A stretch of 64,000 nt of DNA from Promethearchaeota archaeon (GTDB lineage: Archaea > Asgardarchaeota > Lokiarchaeia > Sigyniarchaeales > SOKP01): positions 32,001 through 96,000 of the forward strand of contig JAHPZJ010000010.1 of assembly GCA_019058245.1 (NCBI GenBank). Direction: 5' to 3'. The notes beneath the pieces were generated by a model. The model was not told where the DNA came from and searched no databases. It saw only the letters and a program-made list of their open reading frames with translations. The translations under genes and the position numbers were made by a program. Positions 25,743 to 34,303 of the stretch are shown here, one piece after another (the first letter of the stretch is position 1; each line of letters starts with the position of its first letter).

Positions 25743-26174
25743 TTAGTTCATTAATCCTCTTTCTTTTAACCATTCTTTTATTTTCTCATGAATTTGATCC
25801 CTAATTTCACGAAATTTATTTAGTTTTTCCTCATCAGTGCTTTCAAAGGTAGTAGGGTCTTCAAATGGCCAAAATAATCGAGTACCTACCCCTGGAATAG
25901 TTGGACATTTTTCTTCTGCTTTAGCGCATACAGTAATCACGACTCAAAAATGTATTTTTCCCAAATACTGCTTTAACTCTTTAGAAGTATGGTTACTTAA
26001 ATCATATCCTATTTCTTCCATCATTTTTATTGTTAAAGGATTAATCCCTTTTGGTTCAAAACCAGCACTATAAACTTCAAAATGATCTCCTGCATATTTC
26101 CTCAGAAATGTTTCTGCTATTTGGCTCCTTGCAGAATTTTTAGTACATAAAAAGATAGCTTTTGTTTTTTTCAT
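25743..26174 (-). pseudogene. arsC: Thioredoxin-dependent arsenate reductase (LMW-PTP fold) interrupted by one in-frame TGA
   Basis: The two ORFs are in the same frame: CTKNSARSQ...KIHF-TGA(25946-25944)-VVITVCAKAEEKCP...WPFEDP...FREIRDQI. Confidence 0.8.
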
Positions 26175-26235: not shown

Positions 26236-26294
26236 TATAGGAGGCAATCCTCTTGTCAATCTTTTACTAACATTTATTAAAAGATCTCATCCAA
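26236..26294 (-). ncRNA. SECIS-like element, copy 1
   Basis: Minus strand reads TTGG-ATGA-G-ATCTTTTAAT-AAATGTT-AGTAAAAGAT-T-GA-CAA. This gives an AUGA/GA core, a ~10-bp helix and apical AAA. It is 57/59 identical to copy 2. Confidence 0.8.
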
Positions 26295-26781
26295 TACTAT
26301 TTGAATATTCAGATTTAAAGTAGTGGGCAAAAATTTCATTGTCTTTTCCATATTTCTTTCTAATAATGCTTTTAAATTCACCGATATCCAGTCTTTTTTT
26401 CACTTTTTCTCATCAACATCCAGAATCTGGTTGTAAATCTATTACACTATTAGGATATAATACAAAATTTATATCATCCCGAAGCGGCATAAATTTTCTT
26501 AGATTACCATGCTCATCAGGACCATAAGACATTAATCCTATATCATCATAAATTGCATTTTCTTCTGGATTCCATATTAATTGTAAATAATTATGGATAT
26601 AACCATCAAATAAAGGAAATATAGATTCATCTGGATTTTCATAAATAAATTTATCTATGAGAGCTAAAGCTTCAACAAAAGTAGCATTGTCTCTGACTTC
26701 TATAGTAAAATTTTTACCATGTTGTAAACCACTTGACGGAATACTAATTTTAAATGTAATTTTTTTAATTTTAAAAATCAC
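26287..26781 (-). CDS. Candidate selenoprotein A, beta-grasp (MoaD/ThiS-like) fold, C-U-U motif, 164 aa
   Basis: ...QPDSGC-TGA-TGA-EKVKKRLDIGEFKSIIRKKYGKDNEIFAHYF... The post-UGA segment is conserved with paralog B and a SECIS-like element follows. The fold call is inference. Confidence 0.75.
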
Positions 26782-26977
26782 CTCTTATTAATAAAAAAGA
26801 ATAAATTTTTAAACATTAAGATAGTCCTTTAGCTTTAAGTATTTTTAGGAGTTCTTTCTTAAGTATAACTGTTGGTATTTATTCTATATATATAATATTT
26901 ATACAAAATAATAAAAATACTTTAGAACAATGATATTTATCTTCATTCTTAAATAGAAATTATTATTAACATTTCTT

Positions 26978-27976
26978 TTACCAATCTTTGTTTTCCCATT
27001 TCTTAAAAGAACCAAATCCTTCAGTTTTTGAAATTACTTCTTTTAAACTTTTATCAAAAAGAATTGAGATATAATAAGAGGAAACTTCTCGTTTAAATGA
27101 TTTATACCGGATAGATTGTGAAAAACTTTCAGCTAAGATCAAAACAACTTTAACTGAATCCTTATTTTCATGAATAAAAGGAAGAATATAATTCCATTTA
27201 TGATAAAATCTATATTCCTGACTAATTTGTTTAGCTAATTCAAAAAAAATGAATTCATCTGAAACATTTGAAATTGTTTGATTTATTAAATCTTGTTTTT
27301 TGGATGAAAAAATAAATTTTTTTTTTAAAGTAAAAGTGATAAATTTATTCGTTAAAATTTTTTCATAAATTAAATAATAAAATGGAAGAAGACCAGGAAT
27401 GTATTTCTGATTTTTAGGAATTTTTAGTTGTATTATAATTCTTGAAAAACCCCTAATCCCAAAATATGCTAGATAAACATAGAGATAAAAGAAAGCAAGA
27501 TTCATAAGTATTTGATAATAAGGTAATGCAAAATAAAATGCTATTAAAACCAGAAGATTTATACAAGAAAAAGTCATCAATAATGGGTTCACTGCTCTAT
27601 CAGCAATTAGTCTATACTCTTTTTTAGAGATCGGATAAAATATTGGTATTTTTGAAGCAGCAAAAAAATCTAGAGAGACATGGATACTGTATCCTATGAA
27701 TCCAGCAAACCAAATCTCAATGAAAAAAACATTTCTAAATATAGATATAAAAAAACTAACAATTCCACTAATTATTAATCCGATAATATAAGAATGAGAA
27801 CCAGCTTTATGAGAAAGAAAGTACATTTTTCTGATTTTTTGGAGCGGTCCTAAGAAAACGTCCAAATCTGGTAAAAATGTCATAATCCACATTAGGATAA
27901 TAGCTTCTGGACTTAACTTGGTTAATGAAAATAGACCTGCTAAAACCCCTATAAACATATGTGTGAAAAAATCCAT
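26978..27976 (-). CDS. Membrane-bound metal-dependent hydrolase (YdjM-like)
   Basis: MDFFTH, LPDLD, SHKAGSHS and SIHVSLD motifs with multiple TM segments. Confidence 0.75.
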   Translation of the reverse strand: MDFFTHMFIGVLAGLFSLTKLSPEAIILMWIMTFLPDLDVFLGPLQKIRKMYFLSHKAGSHSYIIGLIISGIVSFFISIFRNVFFIEIWFAGFIGYSIHVSLDFFAASKIPIFYPISKKEYRLIADRAVNPLLMTFSCINLLVLIAFYFALPYYQILMNLAFFYLYVYLAYFGIRGFSRIIIQLKIPKNQKYIPGLLPFYYLIYEKILTNKFITFTLKKKFIFSSKKQDLINQTISNVSDEFIFFELAKQISQEYRFYHKWNYILPFIHENKDSVKVVLILAESFSQSIRYKSFKREVSSYYISILFDKSLKEVISKTEGFGSFKKWENKDW

Positions 27977-28030
27977 ATATGTTTTAAAAATAAGACAGCT
28001 TATTTATACAATTCGATTAAAATTTATATT

Positions 28031-28089
28031 TATAGGAAGCAATCCTCTTGTCAATCTTTTACTAACATTTATTAAAAGATTTCATCCAA
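28031..28089 (-). ncRNA. SECIS-like element, copy 2
   Basis: Minus strand reads TTGG-ATGA-A-ATCTTTTAAT-AAATGTT-AGTAAAAGAT-T-GA-CAA, starting 13 nt after the TAA of candidate selenoprotein B. Confidence 0.8.
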
Positions 28090-28102
28090 ATTAATGAATT
28101 TT

Positions 28103-28567
28103 TTATAAATTAAAATAATGGGTGAAACTCTTATGATCTTTTCCATATTTTTTCATAATAATCCTTTTAAATGTCCCATAATCTAATCTCTCTTTCATTA
28201 CATCAGCTCATCAATCAGCATGGACAGCGATAGTTATTTCACTATTAGGATATAGGTTAAAGTTAATGTCTTCATGTAGAGGCATAAATTCTTTTTGAGG
28301 CCCATAAGCGTTTACAGCACAATCCTCATAAATAATATTATCCTCAGCATCCCAAATTAACTGAAGATAACTTTTGATTAAGCCTTTATAAATTGGAAAT
28401 ATGTTATCTTCGATATTTTCATAAACTTTTTTATCTAATATGCTTAATGCATCAACAAGAGTTCCATTATCCTTTATATCCAAATCAAAATCAATTCCAT
28501 TTGACAATTTCCTTTCAGGATCCGGTGCAAATATTGTTATTTTTATTTTCTTAATTTCCAAAATCAC
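28103..28567 (-). CDS. Candidate selenoprotein B, paralog of A, U-U motif, 154 aa
   Basis: ...AVHAD-TGA-TGA-ADVMKERLDYGTFKRIIMKKYGKDHKSFTHYFNL-TAA. The first TGA aligns without gaps to the Cys of paralog A. Confidence 0.78.
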
Positions 28568-28598: not shown

Positions 28599-28889
28599 CT
28601 AAATTAATCCTTTTGCCTTCAGAAGGATTGGTAGTTCTCTCTTGAGATTAAAAGAGGAAGAGATTTTTTTCTTTCCATCTATTATTATGCATTTATTATA
28701 GATATTTAATTGCCTTGCTTCCTCTGAATTTAGATTTTTAGTGTCATAATCAATGTATTTTATATAAGGTGTAAGTTCAACAAATACTCGGTTCATGAAT
28801 TTATCCCATTCACACGCACAGGCATCTAACGGAACATAAATATCAACCTTTAATTTTTCTATAGTTTTATCATTAATTATTTTTATCAC
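28599..28889 (-). CDS. Small thioredoxin-like protein with CxC motif
   Basis: VDIYVPLDACAC beta-strand plus Cys motif and a C-terminal CIIIDGK; lies directly upstream of selenoprotein B. Confidence 0.55.
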   Translation of the reverse strand: MIKIINDKTIEKLKVDIYVPLDACACEWDKFMNRVFVELTPYIKYIDYDTKNLNSEEARQLNIYNKCIIIDGKKKISSSFNLKRELPILLKAKGLI

Positions 28890-28903: not shown

Positions 28904-29083
28904 TTAAACCATTTTATGAAGTCCTTTGTATCTATCGGTACCACAATGAATAAGCTTTGGTTGATAATCTGGATCATCCTTCTTACAATGTGATTCTGAG
29001 TCCTTACAACTCAAACGTGAAATTTGTTCAATGGCTTCACTTAATATTTTTGCAATTTGATTTTCCAATTCTTCCTCATTCAT
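28904..29083 (-). CDS. Uncalled 59-aa Cys/His-containing protein
   Basis: Hand translation: MNEEELENQIAKILSEAIEQISRLSCKDSESHCKKDDPDYQPKLIHCGTDRYKGLHKMV. It ends 14 nt before the next gene's start. Confidence 0.6.
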   Translation of the reverse strand: MNEEELENQIAKILSEAIEQISRLSCKDSESHCKKDDPDYQPKLIHCGTDRYKGLHKMV

Positions 29084-30433: not shown

Positions 30434-31477
30434 TTATTTTCTGAATTTGAATATTTTAAGTGGAGTACAGAATTTGAGTTTAGAAAAACCTACCTGTTTT
30501 GCTTGTTTTATAAATTCCTCCTTGGTAAAAAATCCTTGAACACCATCTATAGTATGCAACATTATATTTAAATAAGAATTTGCTCGGGGAAATAGTAAAT
30601 TTGAACCAAAATAAATACCTCCAGTTTTTAAACACCGAAAAATTTCATCTAAAGACAATTTCAACTTTGACCAGTGTAATACATTTGCAGTATAAATATA
30701 ATCAAAATAATTATCGGGGTATGGTATCTGGGTAGTTGTTCCCGTTTTAAATTCAGGATGGTAAGGTTTAAGATCTATATAAGCATCCTCTGATAATTCT
30801 AAATATTTTTTTACGCTATAATAAAACTCATTGCTTGCAATATTCATAAAATCTTCATTGATATCAACACCTATTAATTTAAAATCATTTATTGGTTTGA
30901 AATTATGTTTCTTCATCACTCGAGCCCAGAAATCAGCTGTGCTAGTTCCACTTCCACAACCTAAATCTAAAAATTTTCCAGGATATTTTATAAAATCAGG
31001 AGCATATGATATTGTTGTATGTCGCATATATCCATACACTTTTTGAGCTAAAGCATCATCTAAAGTAAATAGATTAGATCCAGAGGATACATCAAAGAAT
31101 TTATTAGATAATCGATCAAATACAGCATTTGCCATGTTTTCCGAAAATTGACAAAGTGATTTATCAAATCCTTCTGGAGGTATTACTTCAATATCTAGGG
31201 TTTTATTTAATAAGAATCCAGTACTGGTTTTTTCAATTGTATTATCACTTAAAAGGGTTTCTAATAAAAGAGAAAGAAATTTATCATCAATTACATTAAA
31301 TTCTTCTTTAATTTCTGAGAATGTATGTGGTTGCTGAAGAAAGCTAAGAAAATTGTCCTTTAACCCTAAAACAACAAGATTCCGATAAAATTCACTCATT
31401 GAATCTGAAAATTTCACATATTTACTTAATTTAATTACATTTTTCCATGCTTTAATACGATTAACCAAAATTGTCAT
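30434..31477 (-). CDS. SAM-dependent methyltransferase with N-terminal wHTH/dimerisation domain
   Basis: FLDLGCGSG and FDYIYTANVLHW motifs. Confidence 0.8.
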   Translation of the reverse strand: MTILVNRIKAWKNVIKLSKYVKFSDSMSEFYRNLVVLGLKDNFLSFLQQPHTFSEIKEEFNVIDDKFLSLLLETLLSDNTIEKTSTGFLLNKTLDIEVIPPEGFDKSLCQFSENMANAVFDRLSNKFFDVSSGSNLFTLDDALAQKVYGYMRHTTISYAPDFIKYPGKFLDLGCGSGTSTADFWARVMKKHNFKPINDFKLIGVDINEDFMNIASNEFYYSVKKYLELSEDAYIDLKPYHPEFKTGTTTQIPYPDNYFDYIYTANVLHWSKLKLSLDEIFRCLKTGGIYFGSNLLFPRANSYLNIMLHTIDGVQGFFTKEEFIKQAKQVGFSKLKFCTPLKIFKFRK

Positions 31478-32601: not shown

Positions 32602-33666
32602 TTAAGTCTTCCAAAATCCTTTTTTCCTCAAATAACGCCCTAAATACACAATCGAAAGCATGACTGGTACTTCCCAGAAGAGCCCCATTGTTGTACCTAA
32701 AGCCGCAATTGAACCAATTCCGTATATAGCAATAGCAGTAGCAATAGCAATTTCAAAATGACTTGAAGAACCAATTATTACTGTAATAATTGCTTCCCTA
32801 TATTTCAATTTAAATATTTTTGTTACAAGAATGTTATATCCAACAACAATAACAAATCCAAGTAATAACGGAATCGACACTAAAAGTAAAAGATCTGGAT
32901 TATTTATTAAAACCTCACCATTCATAGAAAATAGAACTACCAATGTTGTAAGTAGAGCAACTATAGATATTTTTCCAACTATTGGTCTATATCTATTGTT
33001 AAACCAATCCTCACCCTTCGAAGATATGAGAATTCTTTTACTAATAACCCCGAATAGAAGTGGAAGTCCAATGAAAATTAAAATTGAAACCAATAATAAA
33101 ACCCAATCAACAGGTATATTTTGAATTCCAGTTAGTAATGTCACCATAGGGGCATAGCCAAATATTATAGTAATAGTATTAAGACTTGTATTCACTACAT
33201 TCTGTTCTTGATTCCCCCTTGCCATCCATCCCCATACTAAAACCATCGCTGTACAAGGACTTGAGCTTAATAAAATAATTGCAACTATTAATTGTTCATA
33301 CCCTGGTACAAATATACGAGCCATGAGTAAACCAACAAATGGAGCAATTAACCAATTTGAAATAATTGTTAAAATTATTGGTTTAGGATTTTTACCTAAT
33401 TTTTTTAATTCAGAGACTTGTAGGTTCAGCATTGCTGGATACATCATTAGGAATAAGCAGATGCCAATTGGTAATGATATTTGCCCTATACTTAAAGCAT
33501 TTATAGCTTGACTTATTCCAGGAATAACCTGAGATAATATAATCCCAAAAAAGATACATATTGCAACCCAGAGGGTAAGATATTTTTCAAAAAATCCAAG
33601 TTCTTTAGAATCTGTTTCCTTTTTTATAGATATTTCCTCTGTTTCTGAAATACTCATTTTTAACAT
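32602..33666 (-). CDS. acr3: ACR3-family arsenite efflux transporter
   Basis: FFEKYLTLWV, LMMYP, SSPCTAMVLVW, SSHFEIAIA and EVPVML motifs. Confidence 0.92.
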   Translation of the reverse strand: MLKMSISETEEISIKKETDSKELGFFEKYLTLWVAICIFFGIILSQVIPGISQAINALSIGQISLPIGICLFLMMYPAMLNLQVSELKKLGKNPKPIILTIISNWLIAPFVGLLMARIFVPGYEQLIVAIILLSSSPCTAMVLVWGWMARGNQEQNVVNTSLNTITIIFGYAPMVTLLTGIQNIPVDWVLLLVSILIFIGLPLLFGVISKRILISSKGEDWFNNRYRPIVGKISIVALLTTLVVLFSMNGEVLINNPDLLLLVSIPLLLGFVIVVGYNILVTKIFKLKYREAIITVIIGSSSHFEIAIATAIAIYGIGSIAALGTTMGLFWEVPVMLSIVYLGRYLRKKGFWKT

Positions 33667-33862: not shown

Positions 33863-34303
33863 GTGAATAAGATCAATAGAAAACGTACTAATGAGATAGT
33901 AAATTCCCTTGAAAGCTGTATTGATTTGCAGACAATTGATGTCAATACTTATTTTAAAGATTTACAAGAATTAGGGAATAAATTAGAATATAATAATAAA
34001 TTTAAGCATTTAGTAGATTTTTGTGATACGTTTGGAAATAAAGAGCGTTTAAAAATAGTTATGATATTAAGAAATGATGACCATTGCGTTTGTGAATTAG
34101 AAGCAATCTTAGATAAATCACAACCATCAATATCTCATCATCTTCGGATTCTTGAGAGTACTGGACTTATAAGAAGTTTTAAAAAAGGAAAATTTACGCA
34201 TTATGAATTAGTAAGAGAAAAATTAACGGAATATATTAGGTTATTTTCTGAGATATTTGATTTAGGTTTTATAAAAGAATCTTATTCTATCCTAAAAAAA
34301 TGA
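33863..34303 (+). CDS. arsR: ArsR/SmtB family repressor
   Basis: HCVCELE..SQPSISHHLRIL motif; divergent from acr3. Confidence 0.88.
   Translation: MNKINRKRTNEIVNSLESCIDLQTIDVNTYFKDLQELGNKLEYNNKFKHLVDFCDTFGNKERLKIVMILRNDDHCVCELEAILDKSQPSISHHLRILESTGLIRSFKKGKFTHYELVREKLTEYIRLFSEIFDLGFIKESYSILKK

Follow-up and report, generated by a model that had tools for sequence, protein, structure and literature searches.

Do two consecutive TGA codons end a gene when the same reading frame continues behind them with conserved protein sequence? This question is raised by a stretch of 64,000 nucleotides from a Promethearchaeota archaeon (hereafter the window; contig JAHPZJ010000010.1, positions 32,001 to 96,000), in which two paralogous genes on the minus strand, named A and B here, both carry TGA-TGA in frame. 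Judging from the sequence comparisons presented below, we consider it very probable that each of A and B is translated into a single polypeptide of approximately 155-165 residues, with selenocysteine (Sec) inserted at both of the consecutive UGA codons. Decoding of both UGAs would be directed by a eukaryote-like selenocysteine insertion sequence (SECIS) of the Loki type, lokiSECIS, located 0-30 nt past the true stop.

Paired in-frame UGA codons and the hairpins behind them

The read-through coding sequence of gene A covers 26290..26781 on the minus strand (164 codons, with a GTG start at 26781) and is composed of a beta-grasp domain, Cys122-Sec123-Sec124 and a conserved basic helical tail. Its TGA-TGA, read as Sec-Sec, occupies 26410..26415 (codons 123 and 124, at 26413-26415 and 26410-26412), and the translation with TGA as U gives ...DSGC-U-U-EKVKK... 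around this site. Gene B covers 28106..28567 on the same strand (154 codons, TAA stop at 28103-28105) and has the layout beta-grasp domain, His-Ala-Asp-Sec-Sec and conserved tail, with its pair, likewise read as Sec-Sec, at 28208..28213 (codons 119 and 120, at 28211-28213 and 28208-28210; ...VHAD-U-U-ADVMK...). The coding parts of the two genes are approximately 70% identical. An earlier reading made from the sequence only (the sequence-only reading) had claimed that homologous sequence follows TGA-TGA in the same frame in both genes, and that the Cys of A faces the first UGA of B. Both claims hold in the TGA=U translation: the frame continues for 30-40 codons past the UGAs with the shared motifs RLD-x-G-x-FK, KYGK and HYF, and Cys122 of A stands opposite the first Sec of B when the segment from the conserved 'NS' to 'RLD' is aligned without gaps, a register with which a MAFFT alignment agrees. 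The true stop of gene A is a TGA at 26287-26289 that doubles as the UGA of the SECIS AUGA core; the usual TAA has been lost there, and the same arrangement of terminating on the SECIS UGA is seen in L039, L050 and L066.

The homolog set consists of 79 Asgard loci, found by a scan of GTDB species genomes, and the window, together 80 loci with 90 homologous ORFs. Nearly all of the 79 loci bear Asgard titles (Promethearchaeota, Hermod-, Hod- and Odinarchaeota), and the remainder are titled 'uncultured archaeon' apart from one 'Nanopelagicaceae bacterium'. The latter contig (L012, DATKTW010000027.1, 'Candidatus Nanopelagicaceae bacterium') carries an Asgard tandem A-B pair with a lokiSECIS, and is probably mis-binned. 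TGA-TGA is kept in 90 of the 90 homologous ORFs (type A 56/56, type B 30/30); TAA or TAG at this position, which the sequence-only reading had taken as a sign of plain termination, is absent. The true stops of the family are TAA in 66 cases, TGA in 18 and TAG in 4, and TGA ends 180 of the 1268 long ORFs of this genome. Because the pair is invariant while TGA ends only 14% of long ORFs, its conservation goes far beyond chance.

Three subtypes are distinguished by the residues at this site. Type A has G-C-U-U, type B has A-D-U-U and, in addition, an invariant Cys81 and His119 (Cys81 being conserved in type B only), and type C has U-G-U-U with three Sec. Type C was observed at L026:2425-2895, L027:2432-2896, L030:2439-2906 and L039:2445-2918, each time as the upstream member of a tandem with a type A gene. 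Two TGA, giving C-U-U, are likewise present in five further, more distant members, which come from other Lokiarchaeia families. The family is carried by 138 of 400 genomes of the phylum and by 117 of 134 genomes of the window's own taxonomic family, and the strong matches among the 400 all have 2 or 3 TGA. A word-indexed protein search returned 86 proteins, nearly all ending at approximately 122 residues; in the few longer ones, for which table 4 was used, the site reads WW. Only 56 proteins were matched when 1.84 billion representatives were searched with a profile.

The segment behind the UGAs behaves as coding sequence. Its ratio of nonsynonymous to synonymous substitution (dN/dS, Nei-Gojobori), a check that the sequence-only reading had proposed, is 0.11 for type A and 0.13 for type B, equal to that of the core (0.10-0.14 overall; 0.14 and 0.11, respectively, in the 30 codons before the UGAs), although the ratios are rough because synonymous sites are near saturation. 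The sequence-only reading had also considered that this segment might be an independent small gene in another frame, but the other tail frames are closed by stops (+1 in 83/84 genes and +2 in 84/84). Moreover, the codons between the UGAs and a possible internal start vary synonymously with the residue kept, for instance Ala as GCT, GCG, GCC and GCA.

The hairpin behind each gene is the second line of evidence. Published Loki SECIS elements consist of AUGA, a 9-bp stem, an 11-nt apical loop with an A-rich start and an (A)G end, and GA or AA, and they lie near the stop (PMC4989117). Both hairpins in the window match this geometry position by position. That of gene A spans 26251..26294 on the minus strand (AUGA at 26287-26290, 9-bp stem, 11-nt loop, GA and a short lower helix), and that of gene B spans 28046..28089, also on the minus strand, beginning 20 nt past the TAA stop. 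The two 3' elements (26255-26292 and 28050-28087, minus strand) differ by one mismatch in 38 positions, and a comparable match was obtained in 0 of 100 shuffles of the window. Among the homologous ORFs, 78 of 90 have a lokiSECIS starting no more than 31 nt past the stop. In four tandem upstream genes, the sole detected SECIS is approximately 500 nt off, past the next gene, and in three of these it lies behind the downstream paralog; by analogy with HdrA-VhuD, one SECIS is apparently shared by the tandem paralogs.

Across 74 aligned SECIS, compensatory changes occur in 7 of 9 stem pairs and 93% of cells are paired. This level of pairing and covariation was reached by none of 500 shuffles, and slid registers also fell far below it; the covariation counts carry more weight than the 93% pairing, because the SECIS set was picked for pairing. 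Minimum free energy folding of the 3' element yields a different, long hairpin whose z-score is unremarkable; the agreement with the published geometry and the covariation led us to prefer the lokiSECIS fold. A scan of the window at Rfam gathering thresholds found no SECIS and no other family, and no Rfam model matches lokiSECIS. The SECIS-like hairpins that the sequence-only reading had seen behind A and B are confirmed as lokiSECIS with compensatory changes. A pattern scan of the whole assembly (3.09 Mb, 29% GC, 31 contigs) detected six good lokiSECIS, three of them after VhuD genes (two known Sec positions), one after another ORF with UGA and two after A and B. Outside the window, on contig G000:C13 at approximately 146.2 kb (minus strand), a small membrane-anchored ORF has G-G-U-G-C and a lokiSECIS 15 nt past its stop; it may represent another unlisted selenoprotein.

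Predicted fold, ars neighbourhood and possible function

The AlphaFold2 model, built from an alignment of 54 sequences, has a predicted local distance difference test score (pLDDT) of 86.6 and a predicted template modelling score of 0.83, with a pLDDT of 94-96 in the tail, no lower than in the domain. Its topology is beta-beta-alpha-beta-beta-beta to residue 118, followed by three short tail helices. VIA-align ranks highest the transcobalamin beta domain (Z 7.8), CysO (Z 7.7; root-mean-square deviation (rmsd) 3.1 over 81 residues), SAMP1 (Z 7.4; rmsd 3.0, 83 residues), MoaD-type proteins (6.4-6.8) and Urm1 (5.1). Foldseek against the PDB gives weak matches (best E 2.5e-3), and all of those listed are beta-grasp domains. 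The fold assignment is sound, but the Z-scores, all below 8 and middling by the scale of the tool, do not extend to close kinship. The C-termini of the matched carriers align to residues 120-125 of the model and the Sec pair stands at 123-124, which supports, at Z values of at most 7.8, the sequence-only proposal of a ubiquitin-like scaffold with a Cys/Sec cluster at the position of the MoaD/ThiS Gly-Gly. The last beta-grasp strand would then lead into a loop with the chalcogen cluster, where sulfur carriers end in Gly-Gly, and from there into the basic helical tail. Searches of both proteins against Pfam at E<=1 and NCBIfam at E<=0.01 revealed no family, including no PF02597 (ThiS), and the protein atlas returned only hypothetical clusters, with ThiS clusters among the weaker look-alikes.

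Clustering of the ORFs in the 80 loci revealed a recurrent gene order: a divergent arsR, acr3, a protein of approximately 100-135 residues, the Sec gene or genes, and then arsC, a YdjM-family gene or an HD protein. Between the 100-135-residue protein and the Sec genes, some loci also encode a ferredoxin of the HgcB-like type, with vicinal Cys, and the 100-135-residue protein a second time. In the window, the ArsR-family regulator (33863..34303, plus strand) is divergent from the gene for the ACR3 arsenite efflux transporter (32602..33666, minus strand; TIGR00832, 287.7 bits, above the cut-off). A YdjM-family membrane protein, present in 34 of the 80 loci, is encoded between the paralogs (26978..27976, minus strand), and directly downstream of A lies arsC for a thioredoxin-type arsenate reductase (LMWPc; 25743..26174, minus strand). 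ACR3, ArsR or ArsC is encoded within 3 kb in 56 of the 80 loci (ACR3 in 43, ArsC in 12). Between the Sec genes and acr3, a gene for a S-adenosylmethionine-dependent methyltransferase (30434-31477, minus strand) has sub-threshold matches of the ArsM type (E 5e-6, 26.5 bits). The ferredoxin, a two-cluster protein that has vicinal Cys at each end, was observed inside the operon at L030:1628-1948 and in 28 other loci; its best NCBIfam match is HgcB, with 52.6 bits against a cut-off of 99.

The conserved upstream partner, N135, is found in 64 of the 80 loci. The gap from its end to the Sec gene, measured in 51 co-oriented adjacent pairs, is 12-156 nt and mostly 12-70 nt. Its C-terminal domain has a predicted thioredoxin fold (pLDDT >90), with an invariant C-x-C at the position of the thioredoxin active site. 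In the window the partner (28599..28889, minus strand) is a 96-residue ORF, and a separate 59-residue ORF containing Cys (28904-29083, minus strand) is found in another frame, while partner homologs such as L085:2570-2974 are single 135-residue proteins with a Cys-rich N-terminus. The split in the window may result from a frameshift, or the partner may truly be shorter here. An assignment of the partner to ArsD has no support from profiles, and the partner has only a generic thioredoxin fold.

The arsC gene of the window is itself interrupted by an in-frame TGA (25944-25946, minus strand) at codon 77. A third Sec was rejected for this position, where twelve homologs, all encoded downstream of Sec genes, have Gly, Lys or Glu and no SECIS follows the gene. 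A single substitution converts GGA to TGA, and the cause is most probably a nonsense mutation or a fault in the assembly.

Each subtype would offer three soft sulfur or selenium ligands: C-U-U in A, U-U and Cys81 in B, and U-x-U-U in C. The favoured coordination of As(III) is by three S/Se ligands, and Cys-Sec pairs are among its targets. Because of the ars operon context, the three soft ligands of each subtype and this coordination preference, we favour a chaperone or buffer for As(III)/Sb(III). The proposal that the protein binds these ions on its selenols and buffers them or passes them to ACR3 is tentative, and we rate its chances at somewhat below even; the thioredoxin-fold CxC partner would keep the selenols reduced or exchange the metalloid. 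The more specific proposal of an obligate vicinal-diselenol metalloid chaperone, derived from a ubiquitin-like sulfur carrier whose Gly-Gly end became a Cys/Sec cluster, is put forward with greater reserve.

The strongest competitor also accepts a real di-Sec protein, but gives it a redox task, in which Sec-Sec or Cys-Sec cycles between diselenide or selenenylsulfide and selenol. It would serve as an electron relay with the thioredoxin-fold CxC partner, for instance to the thioredoxin-dependent ArsC of the operon. The G-C-U of type A is the triplet of the redox-active end of mammalian thioredoxin reductase, the neighbour has a thioredoxin fold, and the ArsC of the operon is of the thioredoxin-coupled pI258 type. 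Most known selenoproteins, moreover, are redox proteins (PMC13188914). However, the partner has C-x-C rather than the C-x-x-C of reductases, ArsC occurs in only 12 of the 80 loci compared with 43 for ACR3, and three S/Se ligands would suit As(III) better than a two-electron couple. We therefore regard a redox role as credible but unlikely.

Less probable by far is a carrier of selenium or sulfur similar to ThiS, MoaD or CysO, whose Cys/Sec cluster would bear a persulfide or perselenide destined for the synthesis of Fe-S clusters or cofactors or for selenium trafficking, with the ars neighbourhood being secondary. The beta-grasp is closest to sulfur carriers and has its reactive residues at their C-terminal position, ThiS clusters are among the weaker look-alikes in the atlas, and a gene for a NifU_N scaffold adjoins one relative lacking the Sec pair. 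The protein is, however, without a free Gly-Gly carboxylate and has no match to Pfam ThiS even at the permissive threshold given above, and ars genes make up its conserved neighbourhood. Across the 80 loci, no E1-like adenylating (activating) enzyme, MoaE, ThiF/ThiG, cysteine desulfurase or other synthase partner recurs at distances of up to 3 kb.

Selenocysteine machinery and other readings of the UGA pair

The sequence-only reading presupposed Sec machinery in the genome, and this was found in part. The metagenome-assembled genome (MAG) of the window, which is 76% complete, contains SepSecS (E 6e-111), a PSTK/KTI12 gene (E 2e-32) and, 4.6 kb from SepSecS, a gene for an EFSec-like GTPase (235.7 bits against a cut-off of 242). 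SepSecS is present in 133 of the 138 genomes that carry the family, and among the Asgard families without a SepSecS match the only carrier is a 66%-complete genome (G130, family f2).

Several observations weigh against Sec-Sec proteins that handle arsenic. SelD was not found in the 76%-complete MAG (only AIR-synthase-type paralogs below the cut-off) and neither was tRNA-Sec, the Rfam model RF01852 matching only tRNA-Gly and tRNA-Ser. The tRNA-Sec candidates that ARAGORN proposed at relaxed thresholds were rejected as not credible (27-34% GC). No homolog among the 56 library matches has Cys at the two Sec positions, so that the facing of Cys and Sec expected of orthologues is seen only between paralogs; of the CC, CU and UU variants that the sequence-only reading suggested looking for, the 90 ORFs provide TGA-TGA throughout and no replacement of either Sec by Cys. 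Relatives without Sec have IT, IS, VS, KS or GD at the position of the pair, and two of them (L089:1274-1747 and L090:6001-6393, with VS or IT) sit outside an ars context. Besides the relative next to NifU_N, another has glyoxalase-like, HxlR and HMA-thioredoxin genes nearby. The arsenic function, furthermore, is based on gene neighbourhood and ligand counting, and 24 of the 80 loci have no ars gene within 3 kb. Finally, a start-capable codon is enriched in the tail, which fits a separately initiated tail peptide: GTG stands at one position in 47 of 56 type A genes, while only 11% of other Val codons are GTG, and ATG stands at the same aligned position in 29 of 30 type B genes.

As for the missing Cys at the Sec positions, the distant members are instructive. 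They keep the neighbouring Cys without having the Sec pair, and their tail is shorter; on this comparison the conserved Cys seems to be ancestral, and the Sec pair seems to have been added in the ars-linked clade.

The start-capable codons are the basis of an alternative in which each locus contains two genes, namely a beta-grasp protein of 118-122 residues ending in a tandem stop, and a basic peptide of 30-40 residues initiated from a GTG or ATG 9-12 nt further on. TGATGA would then be kept as a stop and ribosome-binding-like signal, and the hairpin would be a terminator or stability element. In the window these codons are GTG 26403-26405 in A and ATG 28196-28198 in B (minus strand), located three codons past the last Sec in type A and four in type B. 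A start-capable codon is found at the aligned position in 79 of the 90 ORFs, with GTG seven-fold enriched relative to other Val codons, the 122-residue form is annotated by public gene callers, and a few stand-alone tail ORFs exist in the library (P0120, P0130). Against this, the hairpin shows all the published features of a SECIS, and in this genome it is otherwise seen only behind ORFs with UGA (three VhuD and one small unverified ORF). Codons other than starts (GTA, GTT, TTT, CTT, Ile, Phe) occupy the position in 11 of the 90 close and at least 3 of the 5 distant members, tandem stops would drift to TAA at 29% GC, and the gene is almost confined to genomes with SepSecS. Because the stretch from the UGAs to the putative start keeps its residues while its codons vary synonymously, at least 14 members have no start-capable codon there, and a SECIS requires a UGA to act on, the conservation of the start codon does not rescue two separate genes, which we consider highly improbable. 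In a gene read through as Sec-Sec, the conserved codon may provide a back-up re-initiation after termination or exert a context effect on Sec decoding.

A general reading of TGA as Trp or Gly, as ordinary codons of this organism, was rejected as next to impossible: some public calls on short contigs give WW under table 4 and Gly-Gly would restore the ubiquitin-like GG, but TGA is an ordinary minority stop in this genome, ending the 180 long ORFs and 18 of the family's own genes counted above, in-frame TGA is confined to genes with a SECIS behind, and internal TGA in the examined homologs is found essentially only at the conserved site, two or three per gene.

Relation to known selenoproteins, sulfur carriers and arsenic proteins

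With Sec-Sec as the preferred reading, A and B would represent an eighth Asgard selenoprotein family, very common in the window's taxonomic family and truncated at 118-122 residues in the public annotations of hundreds of Asgard genomes. Pipelines based on homology and on Cys/Sec pairs miss the family because it has no Cys orthologues. The Loki-type Sec machinery would routinely decode two or three UGA in a row, and hence the processivity of eukaryote-like Sec insertion becomes testable in a simple gene. The family would also tie selenium use to arsenic resistance, and be a natural case of a ubiquitin-fold protein with its reactive tail rebuilt from selenols. If the diselenol chaperone is true, this would be the first archaeal selenoprotein family dedicated to the handling of arsenic or antimony and, to our knowledge, the first natural family with an invariant adjacent Sec-Sec pair.

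The sulfur-carrier beta-grasps (MoaD, ThiS, CysO, SAMP and Urm1) share with this family the predicted fold and the placement of reactive residues 4-5 positions past the last strand. They differ in having a free C-terminal Gly-Gly, where A, B and their homologs have C-U-U, U-U or U-G-U-U and a tail of 30-40 residues, and in their length of 70-100 residues, compared with approximately 120 for the domain here.

Two other likenesses concern the chemistry of the site. ArsD uses vicinal chalcogen pairs and a third ligand to capture As(III)/Sb(III), which it then delivers to the efflux system. ArsD, too, is a small protein of ars operons, and the likeness is functional, by analogy: ArsD has a thioredoxin fold and cysteines and serves the ArsA ATPase, whereas the twin-Sec protein has a beta-grasp and selenocysteines, accompanies the ACR3 pump and has a separate thioredoxin-fold CxC protein beside it. 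The Gly-Cys-Sec-Gly end of mammalian thioredoxin reductase resembles the G-C-U of type A in its adjacent Cys-Sec on a flexible segment, and this Cys-Sec centre is a high-affinity target of As(III). However, type A has no flavoprotein domain, its second Sec replaces the final Gly, and the segment is not C-terminal.

Among selenoproteins, those published for Asgard archaea are SelD, FrhA/VhuU, HdrA, FrhD/VhuD, PrxL, AhpF-N and a DsbA-like protein only (Asgard selenoproteome papers and a 2026 review). The twin-Sec family is absent from these sources as well as from Pfam and NCBIfam, and full-text literature searches for adjacent or tandem Sec returned nothing relevant, which agrees with the suspicion of the sequence-only reading that this is not a described family. 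By their descriptions PrxL and the DsbA-like protein are thioredoxin-like and AhpF-N is Grx-like, whereas the family here is a beta-grasp; SelD, FrhA/VhuU, HdrA and FrhD/VhuD are set apart from it solely by the lack of a Pfam or NCBIfam match. The Loki genes with lokiSECIS (HdrA-VhuD, VhuU/FrhA, PrxL and SelD; PMC4989117, PMC11227280) are alike in their in-frame UGA with a close 3' lokiSECIS, in including proteins with multiple Sec, in the use of one SECIS for two tandem genes and in their occurrence in the same taxa. The twin-Sec family is unrelated to them by Pfam and NCBIfam, has a beta-grasp with Sec that are adjacent and invariant, lacks Cys orthologues, and is found in an arsenic-resistance context rather than with hydrogenase or heterodisulfide reductase.

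Precedents for Sec in arsenic handling are the bacterial arsenic-linked selenoproteins of NCBIfam, namely those named arsenite methyltransferase/DUF2284 and /AhpD and an arsenate-reductase-like UxxC protein (PMC13188914). These depend on bacterial SECIS and are enzymes of other folds with separated Sec (UxxG, CxxU), in contrast to the Sec-Sec pair of the archaeal genes.

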